64,000 nt of DNA from Candidatus Bathyarchaeota archaeon. Its GTDB lineage: Archaea; Thermoproteota; Bathyarchaeia; Bathyarchaeales; Bathycorpusculaceae. Under the pieces are notes generated by a model, which was given only the letters and a program-made list of their open reading frames with translations, did no database searches and was not told where the DNA came from. Each line of letters opens with the position of its first letter. Position 1 is the first letter of the stretch. The stretch is from the NCBI GenBank assembly GCA_963733095.1, contig CAVTBV010000013.1:32001-96000 (forward strand), written 5' to 3'. Shown here piece after piece: positions 12,535 to 62,978 of the stretch. Position numbers and translations under genes: made by a program.

Positions 12535-12681
12535 CTAAAACTCAGAACAACACCTAAATGTGGTTCCACAAGCTCCACATCTGAAAAGTGCTATGCAAAA
12601 AACAGGGTTCTCCAGTTTCTTCACTGGCTTATCGAGCACTTTTCCGCATTTTGGACAGTTAGCTTTATTGCATGAAATCAA
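12535..12681 (-). CDS. 48-aa Zn-ribbon protein resembling Cren7-like chromatin proteins (absent from ORF track)
   Basis: TTG start; ISCNKANCPKCGKVLDKPVKKLENPVFCIALFRCGACGTTFRCCSEF*. Confidence 0.55.
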   Translation of the reverse strand: MISCNKANCPKCGKVLDKPVKKLENPVFCIALFRCGACGTTFRCCSEF

Positions 12682-13046
12682 GAAATCAACTTCATATTAC
12701 TGGTAAATGTACTATATATGAAAACTTGTTGTCTCAAACAGGAACAACAACATTCTGTCATCTCGCTTGTAAACCTCAGAAAATAGAAAGCAAAAGCATT
12801 TTTTGTGGTTGTTTGGGTACTCCCACAAATTCTTATTTTCTATCAAATCGGTAAGTATTTGCCGAGAAAATATCTGTCGTTTGGCAGGCAAACCTACAGC
12901 CGATCAAGGCTCTGTTTGCCAGTTATGCAATATGGGGCTTAGGCTCCCAAATGTGTATATCTGGGCACCCTTTTACGGCAATTAGGTGCTTGCCAAACGG
13001 CACCTACTAAAATTAATTCTAAAACTTTTCATGGGAGAGCCCCTTA

Positions 13047-14285
13047 TTATTTTGGCTTAAGAAGGACCGTTGATAAACAGTCCTCTTGAAGATAAGTGTT
13101 GGCAGTGTCCATTATTTCCTCGGTTGAAACAGCTTTGATTTTACCGATGTAATCCACCAATGCTCTTTCGCTTTTGAATTGCCTTTCCATGTAGGCAATA
13201 ATTTCTGAGCATTCATGCGGATTGTCCATTCCTCTGAGGATTTCTGCTAAAATCAGGTTTTTGTTTCTTTCAAGTTCTTCTGTTGGCACGTCGTTTGTTC
13301 TTAGCTTGTATAATTCTTTGAGGATCAAGTCTTTAGCCTTTGACAATTTTTGGTCTTTCACTGCGCAGTTAATGCTGAAGTACCCAAAATCTGTGCCTTT
13401 GTTGTGGTCACAAGTTACGTCGTAGGTTAAAGCGTTCTTTTCCCTCAATTCAACAAAGAGTCTTGAACTAGTGCCTCCGCTGAGTAATGCACTCATCAAA
13501 TCAAGCTTGGGTGAATCTTTATGACTTGAACAAACCGTTCTCGCACCGATGGTCAAATAGGTTTGAGCTATTCCAGGTTTTTTCTCAACAACCATCGATT
13601 CAGGTTTAGCTGTCTCAACAGGAAAATTTTTCTTTGAATACGTCTCCTCAACAGTTCTGTTTTCAAAGTTCTCAAGAACCCTAACTGCCGCGTTTTCAGT
13701 TAAATTGCCCGTTAAAGTTAATATCATGTTTGGGGGAAAATAGTTGGATTTATGAGCATGGTCTAACTGGCTTAAAGTTAATTTTTTTACGGTTTCTGGA
13801 AAGCCTCCGACAGGCCGTTTTACAGGGTGATTTTTGAACAAGGTTTTTAGGAGTAATTCTTCAATTCTTTCTGTTGGATCATCTAAAGCTTCAGAGAGTT
13901 CGTTGAGGATTATTTTTCTTTCTTTTTTGAATTGTTGATCCTCAAAATCCCTGTTAAAGAGCAATTCAGAGATTATACTTGACGCTTCGATTAACTTGTC
14001 AGGTAAAATATCCATCGTGGTCATCATATGTTCGTGGTCTGTGTAAAAATCTAAAATTCCGCCTGAATCCTCGATACTTCTGGAGAGTTGTATACGATTT
14101 TCGGATCCACCCGCAAGCATGTGTTCTATGAAATGGGCAACTCCGGCGAGTTCTGCGGGTTCCTGATTTGAACCATATCCAACTGAGACAGAAAGCTGTG
14201 TAGTGTTCGCGTTTTCCCGGGGAAAGAGCAGCACTGTTAGACCATTCGGAAGGATGTTCCTGCGCCAAAACATGTCAGTAGTCAT
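13047..14285 (-). CDS. M16 (pitrilysin-like) zinc peptidase
   Basis: LPNGL, G.AHFIEHM (HxxEH), ER..IL.E, SSRLFVELREK..LTY. Confidence 0.9.
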   Translation of the reverse strand: MTTDMFWRRNILPNGLTVLLFPRENANTTQLSVSVGYGSNQEPAELAGVAHFIEHMLAGGSENRIQLSRSIEDSGGILDFYTDHEHMMTTMDILPDKLIEASSIISELLFNRDFEDQQFKKERKIILNELSEALDDPTERIEELLLKTLFKNHPVKRPVGGFPETVKKLTLSQLDHAHKSNYFPPNMILTLTGNLTENAAVRVLENFENRTVEETYSKKNFPVETAKPESMVVEKKPGIAQTYLTIGARTVCSSHKDSPKLDLMSALLSGGTSSRLFVELREKNALTYDVTCDHNKGTDFGYFSINCAVKDQKLSKAKDLILKELYKLRTNDVPTEELERNKNLILAEILRGMDNPHECSEIIAYMERQFKSERALVDYIGKIKAVSTEEIMDTANTYLQEDCLSTVLLKPK

Positions 14286-41550: not shown

Positions 41551-41770
41551 AAGCTGCAGCCTAAGCTGCATGAGTCCCAATTTAACCACAAAATTTTACT
41601 TGTGAATGGGCTGGTGCATTTTTCTGTCAATACCAACGTACCTCTATAAGGTTTCTCAAAATGAGATTCTTTTAGGATTGGGCCCGTGGAGTAAGCGCTT
41701 CTGACCCAGGTTTAAATGGTTTATAATTTAGACTGGGAGCGCTTTAGTCCACATCGGCAGAATTATGAAA

Positions 41771-41840
41771 TGCCGCGGGATGTTTAGATTTACACCCACG
41801 TTCAAATTCCCCACGAAGAAACAAGAAAAGGGTAGTAGAA
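41771..41840 (-). repeat. Degenerate tRNA-Ser 3'-end att-like copy plus flank shared with the 53077 copy
   Basis: TGCCGCGGGATGTTTAGATTTACACCCACGTTCAAATTCCCCACG nearly matches 53077-53120. Confidence 0.75.
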
Positions 41841-52761: not shown

Positions 52762-53023
52762 TAACTTCTAAGATTGCATATAAAATTAACCACCTTAGTG
52801 TAAAGGCTTGAATCGGTCCCAATTGGAGATTTTTCTTGAATGCTTGCTTATTGTTTTTTGGTATTATTCGTTTTTCTTTTCAGTGCTTATTCGCACGTTT
52901 CTGGTCTCACACCACGAATGGTGCAAGTCTCTGCGCGGAGCTCAGCCCCAAAACTTGGAACAGATTTGAGTTGGAGTGGCTTCAAACAATAGACCGTAGG
53001 GTATAGTGCATTTTTTCCTATCG

Positions 53024-53146
53024 CAATTTGAGCTTAATTATTAAAAAGAGGTTCATAAATAGGTTGAATTTGGTAATGGCGCGGGATGTTAGATTTACAC
53101 CCACGTTTAAATTCCACACGAAAAAATAAAAAGACGGTTAGGAGAA
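53024..53146 (-). repeat. tRNA-derived att-like site carrying both shared flanks
   Basis: 53077-53105 matches tRNA 62365-62393 at 24/29; left flank like 43971, right flank like 41771. Confidence 0.78.
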
Positions 53147-53148
53147 GG

Positions 53149-53550
53149 CTAACCTTCCTGTTTAGGCCACTTCCATGCATGCCAAACAATTAGTGCAATA
53201 AACACAACTTCTAAAATCTCATAAAATGAATAATAAGCCCAAGTCTCTCCTGGGACAAGCAGTGCAGGGACCAAAACACCAGCATAGACTATACCTACAA
53301 TGATGTTTACCCAGCGATTCACTTTAGCCGGCAATGCCAGGGACAAGAAAATCATAAAAATCGGAATCGCCATTAATATTGCAGCTAAAAACAAGGATAC
53401 TTGATTAAGTGCGATTTCTCCTGATAGTACTTTCTCCACTATATCTTGCCTATAGAATCCGAAAACATCGTTATACAAATAAAAAAACATTAAAGCTACC
53501 CATAATGCTGAAAGCTTAATCTTCACATTTATCTTCACATCTTCTAACAT
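53149..53550 (-). CDS. DUF6326-like 4-TM membrane protein
   Basis: KI.VK.KLSALW...MF.YLY.D, LPAK.NRW.NI, IVW.AWKWP. Confidence 0.7.
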   Translation of the reverse strand: MLEDVKINVKIKLSALWVALMFFYLYNDVFGFYRQDIVEKVLSGEIALNQVSLFLAAILMAIPIFMIFLSLALPAKVNRWVNIIVGIVYAGVLVPALLVPGETWAYYSFYEILEVVFIALIVWHAWKWPKQEG

Positions 53551-53818
53551 AGGCTTCTCTCTCTCCTCATTCGAGTATTTAGGGCATTACCTGTTGATTT
53601 GGATTTAACACTATTGGTCAAATACACTAAGAAAGGAAAGAAACTCTTCCTATAAAATGTCAAGAAACTTAAGTGCTCTCTAGCAGTCCTTACGGTATAG
53701 TTCATCAATTGGTTAAATTGGAAGAAAGCAAGGCCAGCACAATACCAAACATGGCAGACTCAACTCAATAGGGACGGCATTAAAGAAAACCGTTTTTATG
53801 TTCATTAGAGTAGCAATT

Positions 53819-54790
53819 TTACTCCACAGCTATTACTATTTTTCCTCGTTGTTTTCCTTCCTCGAGATACCGTAGAGCCTCAGCAGTCTCACTCAACGAA
53901 TAACATCTATCTATAACAGGCACCACATTGCCGGATTCAATAAGCTCTTTTACAAAAACCAAATCTTCTCTTTTGTTTGGTTCCATAGGAATACCCATTT
54001 TCTTGCTTCCAGTCATTGAAATCAACGGACCTATGAACAAAGCTTGGAAAATTGCAGTCCTAGAACCTCCGACTATAAGATAAATGCCCTTGGAACTCAA
54101 AGCACACTTGTAATCGAAAATAGAGTGATGTGCCGCAACATCAAGAATCAGGTCATATGTCTGCCCATTTTTGGTGAAATCTTCTTTAGTGTAATCAATG
54201 ACGTGGTCTGCACCAATTGAGCGCAGCATGTCCAATTTATCCGTGCTATCCACGCCAGTCACCTCAGCCCCAAAGTACTTGGCAATCTGCACCGCGAATG
54301 TACCTATACCACCGCCTGCACCATTAATCAAAACTTTTTGTCCTTGCTCAATTTTTCTTTTAGCACGAAGATACTTCATGGCGATAGCGGCTCTTGAGGT
54401 TACGGTCGCTGCTTCTGCAAATTTCATGCTGACTGGTTTTAGTACTAAAGCATCTTCAGGTGCACATACATACTCTGCAAAAGCGCCAAAACCATAGTTG
54501 GTTAAGTCTCCGAATACGTCATCACCTGGCTGAAACTGCTGTATGTTTCTGCCAACCGCTTCAACCCGCCCCGCTATGTCAGAACCGAGTATCTTGTATT
54601 TTGGTCTTAAAGGCCCAATTAAGCGGACAGCGATCGTACCTCTCAGGTGTTCTAAGTCATCTACGTTTACAGATGCTGCATATACTTTTACCAGCACTTC
54701 GTTGTCCATTGGAATGGTTTTTTCTACCTCTTTGAGCTGGAGAACATCTGGTGATCCGTATTTAGTGCGTATAATTGCTTTCATTTTCAC
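53819..54790 (-). CDS. NAD(P)-dependent MDR-family oxidoreductase
   Basis: KYGSPDVL, LGSDIAG.VEAVG, NGAGGGIGTFAVQIAK, GAD.VIDY, GK.V. Confidence 0.9.
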   Translation of the reverse strand: MKMKAIIRTKYGSPDVLQLKEVEKTIPMDNEVLVKVYAASVNVDDLEHLRGTIAVRLIGPLRPKYKILGSDIAGRVEAVGRNIQQFQPGDDVFGDLTNYGFGAFAEYVCAPEDALVLKPVSMKFAEAATVTSRAAIAMKYLRAKRKIEQGQKVLINGAGGGIGTFAVQIAKYFGAEVTGVDSTDKLDMLRSIGADHVIDYTKEDFTKNGQTYDLILDVAAHHSIFDYKCALSSKGIYLIVGGSRTAIFQALFIGPLISMTGSKKMGIPMEPNKREDLVFVKELIESGNVVPVIDRCYSLSETAEALRYLEEGKQRGKIVIAVE

Positions 54791-55129
54791 ACATGCTAAT
54801 CACTTTTAACGTATATAAGAGCGCTCGCTAACCAGACCAAAATTATGCTTGTCCGTACAGCTTTTTGTATAGATAGCCAACAACTATTCCTGGGAAGAGA
54901 AACCTTGGAATGTTCATTACTGTGTCGACCAAAAGTAGACATAGGTATTGCTTAGATTGCCAAAAGTTGAAAGGACTTCGATGATGACTAAGGCAACAAA
55001 GCTAAGGATCAAGGCTTATAGAATTGGGCTGAAAAATTCAGAAATTTGCAAGCACAATGATTTTTATCTTTTTCCTGAGCCCTTTTTTGGTAAATAACAA
55101 AAAATTAAGCTCTGTTTGGCAAAAGGAGC

Positions 55130-56017
55130 GTGGCGCGGGATGTGGGAATTGAACATACTGCTCCTGAGTTTATGGTCTATCTTAAACAGAATATTAGGGA
55201 AGTTACTGCTAAAACATACGTTAAACGGCTAGGACTTCTTAGTAAGGTAGCTAATCTGGATGATGCTGAGAAGACTAAAAATGTGATTTGTAGTTATCCA
55301 TGTACCGAATCGTTTAAGGAATTAATGGCTAGTGCATATGATTACTATGTTCGTTACAAAGGTCTAACTTGGAATAAACCCAGATTCACAAGAGATGATA
55401 AACCATTCTTTATTCCGTTAGAAACTGAGATAGACCAACTAATCAGTAAATCTAGAAAGAAGATGTCTGTGTTTCTACAGTTGCTTAAGGAGACTGGTGC
55501 CGATTCTGGTGAAGCATGGAAACTAAGATGGCTTGATGTTAACCTTGAAAATAAAACTGTTGCTATCACACCTACAAAGAATCATAATTCTAGGGTATTG
55601 CCGATTTCTAATAATTTGCTGTCTAGAATGCTAAGTTTGCAACGTGAGAATGAAAGAGTATTTGGTTGTAATGCTCATACGCTCGATGATTTCAGACGTA
55701 GATTTGAAGACATGAAGAATGCGCTTAGTATAAAACTAGAGAATCCCAGATTAAAGGAGATAGCATTCCGTTCATTTAGGCATTGGAAAGCAACAACTGA
55801 GTACCATAAAACAAAGGATATTTTGCATGTTAAATGGTTGCTGGGTCATAAACGGATTGAGAACACGTTAGTCTATACGCATCTAGTAAACTTTGATAGT
55901 GATGAATACGTCTGTAAGGTTGCTAAGACTCTTGATGAGGCTTCTGTTCTGATTGAATCTGGATTTGAATATGTTACGGAGATGAATAGTGTTAAATTGT
56001 TCAAAAAACGCAAATAG
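55130..56017 (+). CDS. Tyrosine integrase, int(C) portion
   Basis: Begins within att (VARDVGIE); ETG..GEA..L.W.DV, F.SFRHWKAT, LLGH..IENT.VY. Confidence 0.9.
   Translation: MARDVGIEHTAPEFMVYLKQNIREVTAKTYVKRLGLLSKVANLDDAEKTKNVICSYPCTESFKELMASAYDYYVRYKGLTWNKPRFTRDDKPFFIPLETEIDQLISKSRKKMSVFLQLLKETGADSGEAWKLRWLDVNLENKTVAITPTKNHNSRVLPISNNLLSRMLSLQRENERVFGCNAHTLDDFRRRFEDMKNALSIKLENPRLKEIAFRSFRHWKATTEYHKTKDILHVKWLLGHKRIENTLVYTHLVNFDSDEYVCKVAKTLDEASVLIESGFEYVTEMNSVKLFKKRK
55131..55154 (-). repeat. att site (duplicate of tRNA-Ser 3' end)
   Basis: TGGCGCGGGATGTGGGAATTGAAC identical to 62365-62388. Confidence 0.95.
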
Positions 56018-56108
56018 TTAATTTAAATAGTAGCTTCCAACAAATGCTTTCTTGTCTGGCGAAATTAGTTTGGCTGTTAGACCAATAAAAAAATAACGGA
56101 CTAGGCAA

Positions 56109-56684
56109 ATGAGCGACATAAACAATAATTGGAGATTTACTCGAACACCAGTAGCCCCAGACAAACTAAAACAACTAAAGCAACAATCAAAAGCAAAAAC
56201 TATTGAGTTTTTAATATCTCAAGTACCACAGGGAATTGAACTTTGCAAACAAAATATTGCAGATTTTATAAATGATGCGAGAATCATAAATGAGAAAGGC
56301 AGACTTTGTCACGCATATGTATCTTTCGAGTTTGCTCTTGAAGAATTTGGGAAAATAATGATGTTAAAAGAAGCACTAATTAATTCGGTAGTCAACGATA
56401 AAATTGTTGTAAGTAAAGACTTTTTTAAACACAATAGAAAGTGTGAGAAAGCGATTGAAAAATTGGGTGCTGAGTTCAAATCTGTGTATGATATGAATTG
56501 GTTTCTAAGAGAAACGCTCGGACTATATCCTTTATGGTATGGCACTAAAACCAGCCACGAGACAAGAACAGACTGTGCTTTTGTAAATTATAGAAACGAT
56601 GAATTTGTAATTGGAAGACCAATTGACTCCGTGAAATTTATTAAACTCATAAATCAATTAGAAGAAAAAACAATGTTGGAATAA
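56109..56684 (+). CDS. AbiV-like (HEPN) abortive infection protein
   Basis: N...F..DA..., FALEEFGK, F..H..K, R..C.FV. Confidence 0.7.
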   Translation: MSDINNNWRFTRTPVAPDKLKQLKQQSKAKTIEFLISQVPQGIELCKQNIADFINDARIINEKGRLCHAYVSFEFALEEFGKIMMLKEALINSVVNDKIVVSKDFFKHNRKCEKAIEKLGAEFKSVYDMNWFLRETLGLYPLWYGTKTSHETRTDCAFVNYRNDEFVIGRPIDSVKFIKLINQLEEKTMLE

Positions 56685-56836
56685 TTTACTGCAAGGACGA
56701 ATTCCCGTAAATGTTTTCATAAGACACTACTGGAGTCCTAAGTTAGTTGAGTTGCGAGACAGAATCCTTAAGGCATTAGAGCTTTTAGATAAAGAACGAC
56801 AGCAACCATTAGTAACAAGATGACGTATTCTGGAAA

Positions 56837-57349
56837 CTAAGTAAACGTAAATCGATTTGATGACTTATGTTCTTCCTGTTTTTTTGTTATTTGTTTAAAT
56901 TCGTTTTGTAATGGTATATAAACTGTTGTTATCGAAACTATTCCAACATAAAAGAATGCGGCAGAAGCTACCATGAAAATACCCACTATATAATAGCCTC
57001 CTGTATTGTCGGGATTTTGAACAGTTAACCAAAGAGCATCAATTACTACCGAACCTAAATAAAGTACAAAAGTAATTATAACTCCAAAGAACAGACGTAC
57101 AGGCATTTTTTTCAAGTAATTTATGTCTTTACGCAATTTGGTAAGTTGCTTCATTTCTTTATTATTGGAAACAGGTGTAATATTACTTTTGACTTCTTCA
57201 AATTTCGCTAACTTATCGTTTAACTCCGTATTTAATTCTTCAAAAACTCGATGAAACATTGGTATAATCAGCGCGTATGCAGCAAGAACCAATCCAGCTC
57301 CAGTTATACTCGCTTCCATGAAACCAATAACAATGGATGAGTCTATCAA
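56837..57349 (-). CDS. Membrane protein (TM-coiled coil-2TM), unknown function
   Basis: Three hydrophobic segments around a helical linker. Confidence 0.6.
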   Translation of the reverse strand: MIDSSIVIGFMEASITGAGLVLAAYALIIPMFHRVFEELNTELNDKLAKFEEVKSNITPVSNNKEMKQLTKLRKDINYLKKMPVRLFFGVIITFVLYLGSVVIDALWLTVQNPDNTGGYYIVGIFMVASAAFFYVGIVSITTVYIPLQNEFKQITKKQEEHKSSNRFTFT

Positions 57350-58448
57350 ATTCTCGTCCCTACACCATTATATTTCAATGATGCTCGCATTTAAGACTTC
57401 TCACTAACAGAACATACGAGTTAGAATTTCATAAACTATCCCTTACTAACGCCATAACCCAATACTCAATAACCGTATATACAACTACAGATGCCCATCT
57501 GACTGTATCGACACCTTCTAGTCGATTATGTTTATTCACTAAGATGTCAATTTTATTTCTCTCATTCATATATTTGTTTATTTGTGTTATTTCATTACAA
57601 AGATTTCTTGTCTAGATTCCAACTGCATTTGCTCTATCGTCACATAATAGCATTTATATTATAGATTTGCTTATCTTTACATGCTACAAGGGTGTTACGG
57701 AAATCGTTTTACTCATGGAGTAGTCGGTTTAAAAACCTATTACAGAAGCGTCTGTACCTCAATGAGGCTAAGTGTGGATTAATGGCTAGTTCCCCTAGGC
57801 ATAGGCTTCAGGATATTAAGAACTAGTAAACAAGCAGATTAGTAAAACCGCTAGTGAAATTGCTATTAGGATAAACTATGTCTCTAGTGATGTATTATTT
57901 CTCTATTGATATAGTATGTCTTTAGTGTGTCTAAGTATATGCATTTATCCAAACCGTTCATCTAGCTTGGTTATCTGTCTGTTTTAGTTACCGACTTATT
58001 TTTATTAAACGGATTTTTGTAGTTAAATTGGGAAAATGATGTGGGAAGCATCTTTCGTTGTGTGAAATCTTGGTTAAAAGTTGAGTGTGGGTAAAATCTC
58101 TATGAAAGGTTGTTTTTGTAATTGTTATAAGAAAAAGAATAACTGTTGGAGAGATAAAAACCATTGCTACATGGATGAAACGAAACAAATCTCTAACAGG
58201 CATATTTAGTTGATGTAAGAGTGGTGAATTATTTAAGGGTTAGTGGTGAGTTGGTATAGATGCAAAGAAATCTCTAATTGTTGGTGTATTAGTTGGAATG
58301 TATTTTGTTGGAAATCTTTAGATGTGGGAAGTATAATTTTAGTGTAGATGAACATCTGGTAAATTAATCGATGAAGTGATTATAGGTCTATTTAGGTACA
58401 TATATTAGGGGGCATTTAGTAGTGTTTAAGTATGGGGGATAAGATGAT

Positions 58449-58811
58449 ATGAGTGAAATTGGGGATAATTATATAGCAGTTATTAATTCAGAAATAAAAG
58501 CTGGATTGTTAAAGTGTGATAAGTTGCAAACTATTGTAAAAGATGCTTTAGGAGAAGATGACTACCAAACGGCACGGCGGGCTGGGAATGAATTCCGAAT
58601 GGAAATTGCAGTTATAATGCAGAAGAATGATGAGCAGATGGTTGAGGTACTTAAAAGACAACGTGTAGATGCATTTGGTGGGTATATGCCAACAACGCTC
58701 TCAGGTGGGTCAAAAAACAGAGATGTTACAAAAAGTGATGATGAAAGTGAAATTATCAGCAGAATATTAAGAGGAGAAATCAAAAGTGTTAGAACGGCTA
58801 TGGAATCGTAA
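58449..58811 (+). CDS. Element hypothetical protein
   Basis: 120-aa ORF, first of a co-oriented cluster. Confidence 0.6.
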   Translation: MSEIGDNYIAVINSEIKAGLLKCDKLQTIVKDALGEDDYQTARRAGNEFRMEIAVIMQKNDEQMVEVLKRQRVDAFGGYMPTTLSGGSKNRDVTKSDDESEIISRILRGEIKSVRTAMES

Positions 58812-58845
58812 AAAAACGGGTAAAAAGGCAGTTGAGGTTACAGAA

Positions 58846-59016
58846 ATGCAAACAGCAATTCCTAAAGTGAATAGAGGCTGTGTTCGTTGTAGATATGCGA
58901 TTATAAAAGATGGTTGGCACGTTGAGTTAAACCGATGCCTTTCGAGGGGTTTGGTATTAGGCAAAGATATAACGAAAGAGGATGGCTGTGAGAAATTCAG
59001 TCCTTTGGAGGGTTAA
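58846..59016 (+). CDS. Small Cys4 (Zn-finger) protein
   Basis: CVRC...C...C; GAGG upstream of ATG 58846. Confidence 0.5.
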   Translation: MQTAIPKVNRGCVRCRYAIIKDGWHVELNRCLSRGLVLGKDITKEDGCEKFSPLEG

Positions 59017-59018
59017 AA

Positions 59019-59201
59019 TTGCCGAGGCGTATGGGGATTTATCCAAGAAAACCAATAAGCATAACTTTAGACGTTGAAACGATAGCAATGTTGCAAGCGG
59101 TTAAAACCGTAATGGGTATGAGTTCTTTGAGTTCTACGATTGAGGACTTATGTATTATTGGAATCAAGAATTCAAAATTTCCGCAAGGGAGTAGAGATTA
59201 A
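59019..59201 (+). CDS. Ribbon-helix-helix DNA-binding protein
   Basis: RKPISITLD.E....L......SLS..IE; GGAGG SD. Confidence 0.65.
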   Translation: MPRRMGIYPRKPISITLDVETIAMLQAVKTVMGMSSLSSTIEDLCIIGIKNSKFPQGSRD

Positions 59202-59202
59202 A

Positions 59203-59712
59203 ATGAGCGGAAACTTAATCGTAAAAGATTCATGCATAGAATGTAAACACGTTTCAGAAAAAATAGAGTTTGGTTACTGTGACTGTGACACTAACGATTA
59301 TTCAAAAGGAGAAAAATCGCAAGCCGAAATATCTTGGCTAAGACGACACGGCAAACTGTCAGAAATTAAAAAACCGTTAAGCTATACGATTGCTTCGGTT
59401 GAACAACCCTTAGAAAACGTAATTTCTGCAATGCAGAGGCTATCTGACGAAAGCGCTAGACTACACGGAATCACAAAATCGCTCAGTGATGACTTACAGA
59501 GAAAAAATCGTAAGAGAAAACTTAGATATACAAAATTGAAATTGGAAGTCTCAGTTTCTAAAAGGCTAGAAAAATCAAAGACGCAATTAGAAAAGGGTAA
59601 AAATGAGGTGCTGAAGAAAAGTGACAACTTTGTGGTTTTGGGTGCGCTTAATGGCATGAAAGGCGTTGAAATTACTGGATGGATTGAAAAGAAATTAGTG
59701 GATGGTAACTAA
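59203..59712 (+). CDS. Cys-motif plus coiled-coil hypothetical protein
   Basis: CIEC..CDC, basic coiled coil. Confidence 0.55.
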   Translation: MSGNLIVKDSCIECKHVSEKIEFGYCDCDTNDYSKGEKSQAEISWLRRHGKLSEIKKPLSYTIASVEQPLENVISAMQRLSDESARLHGITKSLSDDLQRKNRKRKLRYTKLKLEVSVSKRLEKSKTQLEKGKNEVLKKSDNFVVLGALNGMKGVEITGWIEKKLVDGN

Positions 59713-60112
59713 AATGGTTGGTAAGACAGAGAAGTTTATTTTAACTAGTGGGTTGCAGACTGTAGCGTCTGGGTTAGCAACTGCTTTTAGTGTCGATGGT
59801 ACGGGTAAGCTAAGGCATCTTAACATATTGAATGATGGTACGTCTGGTACAGTAACAGTTTGTATTTATTCTGATTCTGGGTTAGTAGTGACTTATGGCA
59901 CAGCTACGCTTGGTTCTGGTGGTTTCGTTCCTGATGTGGATATTATTGGGAGTGCATTGCAGGGGTCTGGTGCGGTTTTAGTTTCAGGTTCTCCAACATT
60001 GAATCAAGAAATAAGTTTCGTGACTAATTTGACAGTGCAGTATTTTAAAACTAGTGGTACAGTGACTTTGACGGGAATAGCGGACATTAACAAAAACATC
60101 ATTCAAACTTGA
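59702..60112 (+). CDS. Beta-rich Gly/Thr/Ser protein, possible virion structural protein
   Basis: Alternating-hydrophobic beta strands, few charged residues, no TM. Confidence 0.5.
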   Translation: MVTKMVGKTEKFILTSGLQTVASGLATAFSVDGTGKLRHLNILNDGTSGTVTVCIYSDSGLVVTYGTATLGSGGFVPDVDIIGSALQGSGAVLVSGSPTLNQEISFVTNLTVQYFKTSGTVTLTGIADINKNIIQT

Positions 60113-60136
60113 GCGAAATGAAGGAAGTAAATCTCT

Positions 60137-60385
60137 ATGGTAGTTTCACTCGGAATTTTACATAATAAAGTGAGACCTCGAAAGGCATGGGGTAGTCAAG
60201 ATTCCGTAAAATGCAGTGGATGCGGTAGGGTGCTTTTGACGAATGAACAGGTTTATCGTATTGGTAAACTCAGACAATCGTATGTTTATAGAGGATTTAA
60301 AATTGATTCAAAACAAGGATACCGCCTTAGATATTTTGGGGATTGTTGCATTAATCAAGTTTATGTTGATGGAGATGAAAAGTAA
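60137..60385 (+). CDS. Small Zn-finger-like protein
   Basis: CSGCG ... GDCC. Confidence 0.5.
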   Translation: MVVSLGILHNKVRPRKAWGSQDSVKCSGCGRVLLTNEQVYRIGKLRQSYVYRGFKIDSKQGYRLRYFGDCCINQVYVDGDEK

Positions 60386-60804
60386 TGAAAGATAAACCTA
60401 TTGTCCCAACCGAAAAAGAGTTGAAAGAGGATTATGGAAAGGCTAATTTACGTGAAAAGCATTTTAGGATTCATCCCGATATTGACGATTTGATTAAAAA
60501 ATACTCTAAGATTCTGAGACGTTCAGAGGCAGATATAGCTAATGAAATGATGAGAATTGGCATTTTATCGTTTCAATTGAAGCACGGGTTGCGGTCTAAG
60601 TTGGCACCGTTGATGATTGGTCGGGATTCAGATTTAACTAAACAGTTGAACGACAGAGTTAATTTGATTCTGGAAAAGAAAAAAGCGGAACGTGCAAAGA
60701 AGGCAAATGACCTAAGCGATGCGTTTAGTAAAAAGATAGCTCATGGTTCAAAGGAAGACTGGGAACAGTATAATGATTATAGCGGTAACGTTGAAGAGCA
60801 TTAA
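60385..60804 (+). CDS. Possible RHH-type DNA-binding protein
   Basis: KHFRIHPDIDDLI...SEADIANEMMR. Confidence 0.5.
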   Translation: MKDKPIVPTEKELKEDYGKANLREKHFRIHPDIDDLIKKYSKILRRSEADIANEMMRIGILSFQLKHGLRSKLAPLMIGRDSDLTKQLNDRVNLILEKKKAERAKKANDLSDAFSKKIAHGSKEDWEQYNDYSGNVEEH

Positions 60805-61140
60805 TTTACTAGGTAATCTAAGATAGGGGGATTTTTAAGAGTAAAAAAACGGTTATTGTGATACATCTTTCCATGGAAAAACAGATAGAGATTGAATAGA
60901 ACAGTAATGAATAGCATGGTAAAATCCCTATGTAATAACCTATGTGTCAATGTCAATAGGGGTATGGCTGGGACTGTGGACGATGGTATTTCTTATTTAG
61001 TGAATTTATGTTCTCGGTTATTTTTGAGGTTTGCTGTTTAGTTAACAGGTCGGGGGCTACAGTATTACGTGTTTCTGGGATTTTTGTGAGTTTTTTGTCC
61101 TGCAACATTTTAAATACCTAAAGCAATAATAGGAGATTTT

Positions 61141-61818
61141 ATGAGTGAAGAGGATTCTATTTTTGACAAGCTAATGGATAGAATTATTTATGTTCTTATA
61201 ATAGTCGCTGTGATAACAGGAGTTGCTGATTATTTTCGTGATTCTTTAGGCACTTGGTTTCGTCAAAATTGGATAGGTGTTACAGTAGCGGTTGGTGTAT
61301 CTTTTCTAGTATGGTTTTTAGTTTTGATATTGCAAGTTTTCTTAGAAGGCTCAAGTGAATATGGTAAGAAAGTGAAGTTAAAGAAATCAATTATAAGAAA
61401 AAGAATTCTGAAGGAAAGACTCAAAGAACTTGAAGGTCTTGATTTGACAACAGAAGAAAAAGAGTTACAGATTAGTGAATGGGTTGAGAAGGCGTATCAT
61501 AACGAAATTTTAGGTATCTCTACATCAGCATCAACGGAGTCTAAAATAGAACCAGATGTCGAAAAAGTCCCATCTTTATCACAGAGAGAGAAAGAAATAA
61601 TGATAAACAAAGTTAGTACTCGATGCTGTTATCCGAATTGTAGGGAGTCCATCTCTTTAGAGGTACACCATATAATACCGAGAAGTGAAGGCGGAACAAA
61701 CAAAGAAAATAACTTAATTGTTTTATGCAATAATCACCATCATTTAGCAGACAGAGGCGCAATTTCAAGAGATAGATTAAAAATGTACAGCGTAGCAAAA
61801 ATGAAAGATGAATTTTGA
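61141..61818 (+). CDS. HNH endonuclease with two N-terminal TM helices
   Basis: RCC.PNC....LEVHHIIP.SEGG.N..NNLI.LC.NHH. Confidence 0.85.
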   Translation: MSEEDSIFDKLMDRIIYVLIIVAVITGVADYFRDSLGTWFRQNWIGVTVAVGVSFLVWFLVLILQVFLEGSSEYGKKVKLKKSIIRKRILKERLKELEGLDLTTEEKELQISEWVEKAYHNEILGISTSASTESKIEPDVEKVPSLSQREKEIMINKVSTRCCYPNCRESISLEVHHIIPRSEGGTNKENNLIVLCNNHHHLADRGAISRDRLKMYSVAKMKDEF

Positions 61819-61991
61819 AGTATTAGAATATTCAATTATTAAGGCATATCTGATATGATTGGATTACGTATGGGCTCTAGCAAAATAGCTAGGCAATACA
61901 TCTGAGTTAATGGGTTAATTTTTAGGACTTTTATTGGGTGGAAACTCTTATATGCTTATAGGTGTATGATTATGTTGGAAGGGATAAGAAA

Positions 61992-62303
61992 ATGGTTAAC
62001 GATTATGAATTTGAAGAAGTGGAAAATCTCCCTACAGTAAAAAGAAATAGAATTGGATTGTACACGACTCTTTTAGAACAGTTTAATGCTAGCGGTAAAT
62101 CTAAGGTTCGGTTGAATTGGAAAGGCAAAGCCGCTCTAGACACGGTGGCTGTCAGTTTAAGAAAAGCAGTTAAGATTAATCCATCGTTGAAAGTTGACGT
62201 TATGTCTGTAAGCAAAATAAATCCAGATAGCAAAAAACGAGAAGTCTGTGAAATCTATCTGTCTAAAACTGTAGAAACAGAACATAAAAAGAAGAGTAGG
62301 TGA
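61992..62303 (+). CDS. Small basic hypothetical protein directly upstream of int(N)
   Basis: 103-aa Lys-rich ORF; TATA-like CTTATATG upstream. Confidence 0.6.
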   Translation: MVNDYEFEEVENLPTVKRNRIGLYTTLLEQFNASGKSKVRLNWKGKAALDTVAVSLRKAVKINPSLKVDVMSVSKINPDSKKREVCEIYLSKTVETEHKKKSR

Positions 62304-62309
62304 GTAAAC

Positions 62310-62388
62310 ATGAAAGACTCTGCTAATAATGGTCAAACACTAAAGACGCTGTGGGTTCAAGGAATGGCGCGGGATGTGGGAATTGAAC
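62310..62388 (+). CDS. Integrase N-terminal fragment int(N)
   Basis: MKDSANNGQTLKTLWVQG-MARDVGIE enters the att in the same frame as int(C); GGTGA SD-like sequence upstream. Confidence 0.75.
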
Positions 62389-62451
62389 CCACGCGGCCTT
62401 TCGACCACAGACTTAGCAGGCCTGCCCCATACCAGGCTTGGGGAATCCCGC
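62365..62451 (-). tRNA. tRNA-Ser(GCT), CCA encoded, no intron
   Basis: GCGGGAT/ATCCCGC acceptor, CAGGC-CTGCTAA-GTCTG anticodon arm, long variable arm, GTGGG-TTCAATT-CCCAC T arm, G73. Confidence 0.96.
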
Positions 62452-62615
62452 ACGCTAGTTCAGCCAATCCATTATGCTGTATTTCAATTAAACCTTTCTG
62501 GAAATTAAAACTAGCGGATTCGACAAACATTCTTCGCCCATACTTACCATTAAATCTAAATCTGACAAGCCAAAAATAAACAGAGGACAACTACCTTGTT
62601 TTGTGTGGGAAGCAT

Positions 62616-62978
62616 ATGGCGCCTAAGAAACAATTTAAAAATATAGATGACTACCTCTCAATTTTTCCTAAAGAAGTCCAAATTATTTTAGAAGAGATGC
62701 GGCAAGAGATTCGAGCGGCTGCACCGGAAGCGGAAGAGGTGATTAGTTATCAGATGCCTGCTTTCAAACAGAAAGGCGTTTTGGTGTGGTTTGCAGCATT
62801 TAAAGATCACATCGGGTTTTTTCCAACCGCTTTAGGTGTTGAAGCGTTTAAAGAGGAATTGTCCGGTTACGAAACAAGCAAGGGAACAATCCGATTTCCC
62901 ATAGATAAGCCAATTCCACTCGATTTGGTGAAGAAGATAGTGGAGTTTCGTGTGAAGGAAAATTTGGGTAAACGCTAA
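62616..62978 (+). CDS. DUF1801/YdhG family protein
   Basis: IDDYL, P.AEE.ISY.MPAF, FAAFK.HIGF.P, SKGTIRFP..KPIP..LV. Confidence 0.85.
   Translation: MAPKKQFKNIDDYLSIFPKEVQIILEEMRQEIRAAAPEAEEVISYQMPAFKQKGVLVWFAAFKDHIGFFPTALGVEAFKEELSGYETSKGTIRFPIDKPIPLDLVKKIVEFRVKENLGKR

Follow-up and report, generated by a model that had tools for sequence, protein, structure and literature searches.

The window described here is a stretch of 64,000 nucleotides from the Candidatus Bathyarchaeota archaeon assembly GCA_963733095.1 (contig CAVTBV010000013.1, positions 32,001 to 96,000 of the forward strand). Between positions 55131 and 62388 it contains an insertion of 7,234 bp, bounded by 24-bp direct repeats (attachment sites, att), at the 3' end of the gene for tRNA-Ser(GCT). 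The gene for its tyrosine recombinase (integrase, int) is divided between the two ends, with one repeat copy in each part. The evidence presented below leads us to regard the insertion as an intact, recently integrated and probably non-autonomous mobile element of a Bathyarchaeia chromosome. A short account made earlier from the letters alone (the sequence-only reading) had described it as a tiny integrated element with no recognisable replicase and with a split integrase of the type known from the Sulfolobus spindle-shaped viruses (SSV). The features of the locus are listed in window coordinates, the open reading frames (ORFs) of the rightward run being named o4 to o12.

55130..56017, plus strand: int(C), the 295-codon body of a tyrosine recombinase with core-binding and catalytic domains (PF00589); its GTG start lies one base ahead of the repeat
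55131..55154, no strand: attL, the 24-bp repeat at the left end, perfect and duplicating the tRNA-Ser 3' end
56109..56684, plus strand: AbiV/HEPN-like protein of 191 amino acids (aa), accessory and defence-type (PF18728, TIGR04498)
56837..57349, minus strand: predicted membrane protein, 170 aa, the sole minus-strand gene, with sub-threshold membrane-family matches only
57350..58448, no strand: A+T-rich stretch of 1.1 kb without a convincing gene; repeats, no Rfam family at gathering score
58449..58811, plus strand: o4, 120 aa, which opens the rightward operon; no family (ORF list, profile searches)
58786..59016, plus strand: o5, a small Cys-rich protein of up to 76 aa; no family (ORF list, Pfam)
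59019..59201, plus strand: o6, 60 aa, with a weak ribbon-helix-helix likeness (NikR, E 0.022) and a homologue in metagenome contig L029
59200..59712, plus strand: o7, 170 aa, a core gene with an N-terminal Cys cluster and a basic helical region (metagenome relatives)
59714..60112, plus strand: o8, 132 aa, the most conserved core gene, with an all-beta, jelly-roll-like model (alignment, AlphaFold)
60137..60385, plus strand: o9, 82 aa, zinc-ribbon-like; metagenome contig L026 has a 93-aa Cys protein in a similar place
60385..60804, plus strand: o10, 139 aa, a core gene with an N-terminal ribbon-helix-helix-like pattern by eye (sequence relatives)
61141..61818, plus strand: o11, 225 aa, with a hydrophobic N-terminal part and an HNH nuclease domain (PF01844), in a variable slot
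61992..62303, plus strand: o12, 103 aa from its second Met (the ORF opens at 61962), a core gene that immediately precedes int(N); 51% identity in metagenome contig L027
62310..62388, plus strand: int(N), an ATG and 18 codons followed by the in-frame 24-bp att (MARDVGIE), with AGGTGA 6 nt upstream
62365..62388, no strand: attR, the right copy of the 24-bp repeat
62365..62451, minus strand: tRNA-Ser(GCT), the integration target (ARAGORN, Rfam)

Boundaries, target and history of the site

The 24-bp repeat TGGCGCGGGATGTGGGAATTGAAC (55131-55154 and 62365-62388) is the longest exact match joining both ends of the insertion. Just two copies of it exist in the whole assembly (2.84 Mb in 16 contigs), and about 7e-6 exact pairs of this length are expected by chance in 64 kb. 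The right copy corresponds to the final 24 nucleotides, encoded CCA included, of the minus-strand tRNA-Ser(GCT), which is recognised by ARAGORN and by the Rfam tRNA model (50.7 bits), is intact and represents, by ARAGORN, the sole tRNA-Ser of the assembly. An Rfam scan of 52800-62700 returned tRNA only; a match to a microRNA family (23.5 bits, against a gathering score of 100) was disregarded. The G+C content of the element is 35.2%, compared with 43.1% for the genome. The att copies are perfect and all 12 ORFs are open, int(C) among them, every one except int being shorter than 230 aa, as had been stated from the letters. The element boundaries are those of a genuine insertion. That its att is the 3' end of a tRNA-Ser, and that the layout is common in the lineage and no one-off (see below), had been overlooked in the sequence-only reading.

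Five regions around tRNA-Ser(GCT) were fetched from genomes of the same genus for comparison of the site. In three of them (G003, G019 and G010) the left flank (55080 or 55092 to 55154) continues straight into the tRNA, as expected for an uninterrupted site, and in the other two (G012 and G001) the tRNA is abutted instead by an older flank that matches 52940/53024-53105. At 53075-53105, where this older flank stops, lies a degenerate tRNA-Ser 3' end with 84% identity to the att region. Given the degenerate tRNA end at the flank boundary, the 2-kb segment between this att remnant and attL (53106-55130) looks like an older insertion and tRNA-Ser like a site that has been used repeatedly. The segment encodes a DUF6326 membrane protein and a Zn-dependent dehydrogenase, genes that resemble earlier cargo and that in G010 and G012 are found on contigs other than the one with tRNA-Ser. 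The 7.2-kb element is the newest layer at tRNA-Ser, since its repeats are perfect, every ORF is open and its G+C content departs from that of the genome by the values given above.

Further traces of tRNA ends were seen around this site. A 49-nt copy of the variant tRNA-end sequence (53075-53122) lies at 41769-41817 with 92% identity, and more degenerate copies were found on contigs C12 and C16 of the same assembly and in many genomes of the genus. The 11.3 kb that separate the two degenerate copies of the window encode an MtrH-like methyltransferase, FilR1-like regulators and a pyrroloquinoline quinone (PQQ) beta-propeller protein, which are genes of cellular type, and contain no integrase of the element's family. 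In the corresponding loci of G003 and G019 (L033 and L034) arrays of three to five partial tRNA-Ser copies occur at distances of up to 7-10 kb from the tRNA-Ser gene, a sign that tandem insertions have taken place repeatedly at tRNA-Ser across the genus. A frameshifted integrase homologue, 60% identical, follows the same tRNA-Ser(GCT) in co-directional orientation at 12546-13488 of locus L092 (G002:C4:757000-771500). No second att copy at up to 5 mismatches was found there in the 13.4 kb fetched on the integrase side of the tRNA. This locus is a decayed insertion with att in the opposite orientation.

The split integrase and its clade

The reading frame that opens with the ATG at 62310 runs through 18 codons and then into the repeat, translated as MARDVGIE. 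The ORF at 55130-56017 translates its own repeat copy in that register too, and when 62310-62388 is joined to 55155-56017 the product is a frame of 942 nt (313 codons and a stop) without an internal stop. The perfect 24-bp att inside the integrase gene and the frame of about 313 aa restored by excision, both proposed from the letters, are thus borne out at the two ends.

The arrangement suggests the following course of events. The element's own tyrosine recombinase would insert it at the 3' end of tRNA-Ser(GCT) by means of a 24-bp attP placed 18 codons into the int ORF. In the free circle a single rightward unit would run from o4 through o12 to the 313-codon int. Recombination between attP and the tRNA 3' end would rebuild the tRNA, placing the start codon, and probably the promoter, at the right end of the element and the 295-codon body at the left end. 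The integrated copy would then probably produce little or no integrase and be stable, by analogy with the SSV-type systems as treated in the available text of PMC8371274. Excision would call for read-through into int(C) from the flank, for a start at the junction NTG, or for integrase acting in trans. The element would be copied with the chromosome while integrated and, when free, may rely on enzymes of the host or on a helper, be it another element or a virus.

The sequence-only reading had called the integrase SSV-type, a label that describes the gene layout correctly and the protein family wrongly. In Pfam, int(C) matches PF00589 (53.9 bits, cut-off 27.1; E 2.4e-14) and no other family at E≤0.1, PF16795 included, and among 19 clade members PF00589 was found in all and PF16795 in none at E≤1. 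The NCBIfam XerA model NF040815 was matched at 2.6e-17 with 63 bits, against an equivalog cut-off of 220. The best solved relatives are the archaeal XerA structures 4a8e and 5hxy (best E 1.8e-12, obtained with a 19-sequence profile against all PDB chain sequences). That search returned 18 rows at E≤10, none of them named as an SSV integrase, and the library presumably contains the solved SSV1 integrase chain.

Alignment of int(C) with XerA and with paralogues places Lys150, Arg217, His240 and Tyr249 at the expected catalytic positions. The first catalytic arginine (Arg-I, in the motif GLR) is replaced by Asp125 (GADSGE), and His-II by Arg; residues 125 and 150-152 are encoded at about 55502-55585. 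Asp or Glu occupies the Arg-I position in 17 of the 46 family members, and all 17 carry a His two residues after the catalytic Lys (K-x-H), a motif seen in none of the 29 Arg-bearing members. The change of Arg-I to Asp looks like a working variant of the active site, not decay, because Asp/Glu covaries with K-x-H and because of the many independent insertions.

The split is not a peculiarity of this locus. The integrase family comprises 2,470 proteins at E≤1e-20. Among 22 homologues fetched, 20 have a translated tRNA-end peptide, of at least four kinds, at their start or inside them, MARDVGIE or MARDVGLE in five cases; two others (P0019 and P0086) are unsplit with an N-terminal Zn-ribbon-like part. 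An exact repeat of 16-31 bp links the 5' end of int to a site 2.1-10.6 kb downstream at 12 of the 52 integrase loci scanned, the chance expectation being ~6e-4 per locus by our own estimate, and in 8 of these 12 ARAGORN places a tRNA on the int-proximal copy. Loci L083, L091, L063 and L080 were dropped from the scan as artefacts of overlapping windows, and the shorter repeats of L076 (13 bp) and of L050, L057 and L072 (12 bp each) were not accepted as att. In 11 of 13 elements, this one included, the distal att is preceded in register by a short int(N), 5-33 codons long, with its own ATG. In view of the repeats and the in-register int(N) of the relatives, the split is therefore a design of the clade, and an int(N) without a Zn ribbon is normal for it.

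Classical members of the family, with an unsplit gene and a tRNA just past its 3' end, were also found (L024, L040, L054, L056, L059, L085, and L004 and L008 of the same genome). A maximum-likelihood tree of 46 sequences contains a branch that separates all 12 rows scored as split from all 7 scored as classical; the support for that branch is weak (80/82), the root is a midpoint, 27 rows are unlabelled and the labels were assigned by ourselves. L082 and L085 were left out of the tree owing to matches that were too short.

At least seven more integrases of the family are encoded in the same genome (L002-L008; contigs C16, C2, C5, C14, C13 and C6) with 29-48% identity. All of them are longer and have an N-terminal CxxC...CxxC Zn ribbon, and the one at C2:8125-8955 contains three internal stops. 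Most of the 48 genome loci with related integrases come from metagenome-assembled genomes (MAGs) titled Bathyarchaeia or Bathyarchaeota, a name that one homologue bears as well, and the host is taken to be a Bathyarchaeia archaeon. Four (L051, L067, L080 and L083) come from MAGs titled delta proteobacterium, Clostridiales, Christensenellaceae and Heimdallarchaeota, where the family could reflect either a binning error or a real transfer.

It is a minor yet serious possibility that the split is cosmetic, that is, that a 295-aa int(C) made from the junction GTG or from an internal Met catalyses excision alone. The loss would be of just 18 of the 313 residues, and residues 13-295 of int(C) retain the whole region that aligns with XerA and with the unsplit paralogues. 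The junction always makes an NTG, because att begins with the TG of the tRNA CCA complement, and gene callers begin 4 homologues exactly at MARDVG. However, the ATG with its AGGTGA 6 nt upstream and the operon preceding it remain at the other end, the GGAG at attL is only 1 nt ahead of the GTG, and the conservation of an in-register int(N) with its own ATG in 11 of the 13 elements suggests that this is the real start. Truncated SSV-type enzymes are inactive in vitro according to the available text of PMC8371274, but they belong to another family.

Gene content, conserved core and the nature of the element

No Rep, replicase, primase, helicase (MCM), polymerase or packaging ATPase was matched in Pfam, PHROGs, PADLOC or NCBIfam at E≤0.1, in line with what had been noticed from the letters. 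Neither did Pfam or PHROGs give, at the same threshold, any match to an ATPase, terminase, portal, protease or other hallmark of morphogenesis. By these library searches the element is an integrase with att sites and several genes, without viral, conjugative or transposon hallmark genes, and fits the sense in which cryptic integrated elements are understood in PMC6563490. The ORFs from o4 to o12 form a tightly packed rightward run ending in int(N), with Cys clusters in o5, o7 and o9. No family was matched by o4, o8 or o12 in the four libraries, and profile searches of the PDB sequences with o7, o10 and o12 gave nothing better than E 0.26. In the Protein Atlas the best scores of o12 and o7 (0.86 and 0.82) fell below the required 0.9 and were not used. 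The gene-poor 1.1 kb to the left of this run (57350-58448) contain a 19-bp tandem repeat present 2.7 times (57877-57927) and scattered words of the GAAATCT type; with its iteron-like repeats, this stretch is a candidate origin or control region.

The genes outside the core, namely the AbiV/HEPN-like gene, the membrane protein and the putatively membrane-anchored HNH protein, resemble defence or addiction cargo, for which a role in defence may be proposed. The AbiV/HEPN-like protein is above the cut-offs of PF18728 (37.7 bits, cut-off 27.1) and TIGR04498 (38.6 bits, cut-off 27). The PF18728 alignment covers only positions 2-82 of 155, the N-terminal half of the profile, and no PADLOC model was matched. 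A paralogue, 43% identical, is found on another contig of the same genome (C9:116203-116676, L010). The HNH domain of o11 matches PF01844 with 30.9 bits (cut-off 21.4) and the N-terminal part of the protein is, by eye, probably membrane-spanning. The proposal made from the letters that the element carries defence genes is thus supported in part, by the AbiV/HEPN-like gene and by the HNH gene in its variable slot.

Among the att-bounded elements with the same type of integrase, some carry only unknown genes and others the following:

L044: a lone N6/N4 DNA methylase, 2.1 kb in all
L069: an Argonaute gene with a Piwi domain
L067: an NgoPII restriction-modification system with Vsr
L052: a primase-polymerase of 700 aa
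L058: a protein-primed PolB of 737 aa

The clade thus moves small cassettes, some of them self-replicating and some not.

Relatives of the element proper are few. In 5.8 billion proteins 8 relatives of o8 and 9 of o10 were found, and a profile hidden Markov model of o8 gave 10 matches in 1.84 billion representatives; the element family is rare, with about ten known copies. The metagenome scan with o8 returned 7 loci, of which six (L026-L031, 1.0-3.5 kb each) are real, and L032 was dropped as a chance-level match of 24 residues. Contig L046 (6,081 bp), tried as the contig of the o8 homologue P0004, was rejected as well, since it has no o8 and holds a different element of 3.3 kb. The order o6-o7-o8-(o9)-o10-o12 is kept in the six short contigs. 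Full-length relatives of o8 are 64-81% identical, compared with 35-53% for o7, o10 and o12 (35-46% for o7, in four contigs). Contig L027 ends with o12 and an int(N) ORF that runs into tRNA-Val(TAC), so that in this relative the split layout recurs at another tRNA. Against L026 and L027, DNA similarity breaks at 61044 and returns at 61863, bracketing the HNH gene, the place of which is taken by an unrelated gene of 191 aa in L026 and by no gene in L027. The difference in content between matching flanks shows a conserved core with at least one variable cargo slot. The core consists of small proteins of DNA-binding type, Zn-finger proteins and one protein modelled as a jelly-roll.

Elsewhere, the 11 non-integrase ORFs had no match in the IMG/VR contigs with related integrases or in the 48 genome loci, and in the same genome the HEPN gene alone has a paralogue. 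A blastn search of that genome with the element (word size 16) gave integrase fragments and short matches at chance level only (E 0.1-5), and a looser search of it brought up the HEPN paralogue on C9 in addition. The whole element had no blastn match in the phage and plasmid collections.

The most conserved protein, o8, was modelled twice with AlphaFold, from 8 and from 15 sequences. Both models are all-beta (predicted local distance difference test, pLDDT, 58.7 and 68.6; predicted template modelling score, pTM, 0.60 and 0.64), residues 79-97 being below pLDDT 50. Among the neighbours that both models share are a phage cement protein (7dou, Z 9.5 then 9.3), Bacillus Ena pilins (7a02, 9.9 then 9.1), the coat protein of satellite panicum mosaic virus (1stm, 9.4 then 8.4), a nanovirus coat protein (6s44) and the capsid protein of the archaeal virus SPV1 (6oj0, 8.2 then 7.9). 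PirA and GOLD domains are further non-viral jelly-rolls that score alike, and the best values of 9.9 and 9.3 are shared by viral and non-viral proteins in a comparison where a best Z of 7-8 is common background. In BFVD, o8 matched viral beta-sandwich proteins at E ~2e-4, and Foldseek against the PDB gave nothing at E≤0.001. We consider with moderate confidence that o8 models as a small beta-sandwich of jelly-roll type, which would fit a capsid or decoration protein and equally a pilin or a lectin.

The boundaries, the target, the split frame, the intact ORFs, the foreign composition, the conserved core, the variable slot and the absence of any match to a known replicase are demonstrated, and the element is best described as an intact, recently integrated mobile element. 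Since it has no replication or packaging enzyme of known kind, it is most likely non-autonomous, a description that we hold to be probable as a whole. Several points weigh against it. The absence of a profile match is no proof against a replicase, and o4, o5, o7 and o12 have no assigned function. The replicases of L052 and L058 indicate that non-autonomy is no rule of the family, and no relative covers the part from int(C) to o6, so that a replicase may have been lost from exactly 56018-58448. The integrase lacks the first catalytic Arg and so is only a putatively active enzyme; the matches that suggest a defence role for the cargo are partial profile matches; and a jelly-roll o8 would be less expected in a plasmid-like element than in a virus or satellite that forms a capsid.

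This last point leads to the reading of the locus as a very small virus or virus satellite, also raised from the letters, which we consider unlikely. In this scenario o8 would be a capsid or cement protein, o7 its basic Zn-finger, DNA-binding partner, and integration a form of lysogeny. The conservation of o8 beyond that of o7, o10 and o12, the two all-beta models with viral cement, coat and capsid proteins among their best neighbours, the BFVD matches and the translational coupling of o7 and o8 agree with it. On the other side, the Z values barely exceed the background and are equalled by non-viral jelly-rolls, and the confidence of the models is moderate, with residues 79-97 poorly defined. 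Pfam and PHROGs gave no match to a packaging ATPase, a portal, a protease or any further hallmark gene. The comparisons named as checks in the sequence-only reading also bear on this point. No relative of o8 was found in IMG/VR (single protein and alignment), in the genome contigs (alignment) or in phages (tblastn), and Foldseek gave the negative result above. None of the 29 spacers (32-58 nt) of the single array found in the host genome of clustered regularly interspaced short palindromic repeats (CRISPR; C1:190709-192915, 37-nt repeat) matches the element, the best match being of 13 nt and at chance level. In a more specific and rather improbable form, the element would be a minimal archaeal virus, or virus satellite, of a novel kind in its proviral state, in which o8 forms or decorates the shell, o7 condenses the 7.2-kb circle and neither a replicase nor a packaging motor is encoded.

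It is very unlikely that the element is a decaying remnant, i.e. a trapped virus or plasmid, once larger, from which the genes for replication and morphogenesis were deleted after integration: the part 56018-58448 does look patched (accessory genes, a single minus-strand gene and 1.1 kb free of genes), and the same tRNA has older degraded insertions (degenerate att at 53075-53105) and in G002 a frameshifted integrase, but the att copies are perfect, all 12 ORFs are open, the order from o6 to o12, int(N) and a tRNA is equally compact in independent metagenome contigs, the sister elements are also of 2-11 kb, and searches of IMG/VR, GTDB genomes, phages and plasmids yielded no larger parent or relative, which leaves the deletion of a known larger element, considered in the sequence-only reading, without support. 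A methanogen as host was discarded, as no McrA was found in the genome (95% complete).

Relation to known systems and meaning

In the available text of the 2021 review PMC8371274, a suicidal (type I) integrase is one with the recombination site within the integrase ORF, the gene being partitioned on integration. There PF16795 (Phage_integr_3) is the domain of the SSV, pTN3-like and pT26-2-like families, the att sites measure 40-50 bp, the system is described in hyperthermophiles, and self-splitting integrases are given a single origin in one PF16795 superfamily of hyperthermophilic archaea. The present element resembles SSV1/SSV2, pTN3 and pT26-2 in that attP lies inside the int ORF and integration at a tRNA leaves int(N) and int(C) at opposite ends. 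It differs from them in the family of the integrase (PF00589, Xer-like, with Asp at the first catalytic Arg), in the length of att (24 bp here and 16-31 bp in the relatives), in an int(N) of only 18 codons and in its hosts, which are Bathyarchaeia, several of the relatives coming from MAGs or contigs with names that suggest peat or sediment.

By sequence the closest proteins are archaeal XerA, bacterial XerC/D and the integron integrases, with which the positions K, R-II, H and Y are shared. Unlike XerA, the integrase of the element is borne by a mobile element, targets a tRNA, is without Arg-I and has an extra conserved C-terminal module (...GFEYV..KLF(R/K)KRK).

Cryptic integrated elements of Thaumarchaeota, as described in the available text of PMC6563490, are of 2.6-98 kb, target tRNA or other genes, and have an integrase and short att without viral or conjugative hallmarks. 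Their replication proteins are diverse; NitEve-E3, one of these elements, carries an MCM helicase and an integrase gene that is split when the element integrates. The likeness to the present element lies in the small size, the tRNA target, the integrase with att, the lack of hallmarks and, for NitEve-E3, the split. The differences, as far as that text goes, are the archaeal class, the lack of a match to a replication protein and a core without a match outside about ten metagenome copies.

A further analogy, restricted to the mode of spread, is offered by pSSVi and pSSVx. These are satellite plasmids of a few kb of the Sulfolobus spindle-shaped viruses, which need a helper virus for spread, and the integrase of pSSVi is split. 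No membership of that group is meant. No publication describing the split layout in Bathyarchaeia was found in a literature search of incomplete coverage, most subscription journals being outside it, and in the available parts of the Bathyarchaeia literature examined integrases are mentioned in large proviruses only.

In this context, the integrase clade would stand for a self-splitting design that arose a second time and independently, in an Xer-like family, a view that we regard as more likely than the reading of the element as the provirus of a virus or satellite. If the latter were nevertheless true, the element would be among the smallest integrating, capsid-encoding elements of archaea and of a new type for Bathyarchaeia. 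The clade is of more interest than the single element, which is one modest member of it. The change of Arg-I to Asp, together with the new His near the catalytic Lys, possibly reflects a rewired active site of a tyrosine recombinase and provides a testable variant. The cassettes of 2-11 kb with defence genes (Argonaute, restriction-modification, methylase, AbiV/HEPN and HNH) are a candidate vehicle for the exchange of defence genes in a major uncultured lineage of sediments. The hosts of the clade are Bathyarchaeia, which are not known to be hyperthermophilic. If the separation of the clade holds, the self-splitting design has evolved more than once and may be a general way of switching off an integrase on insertion.

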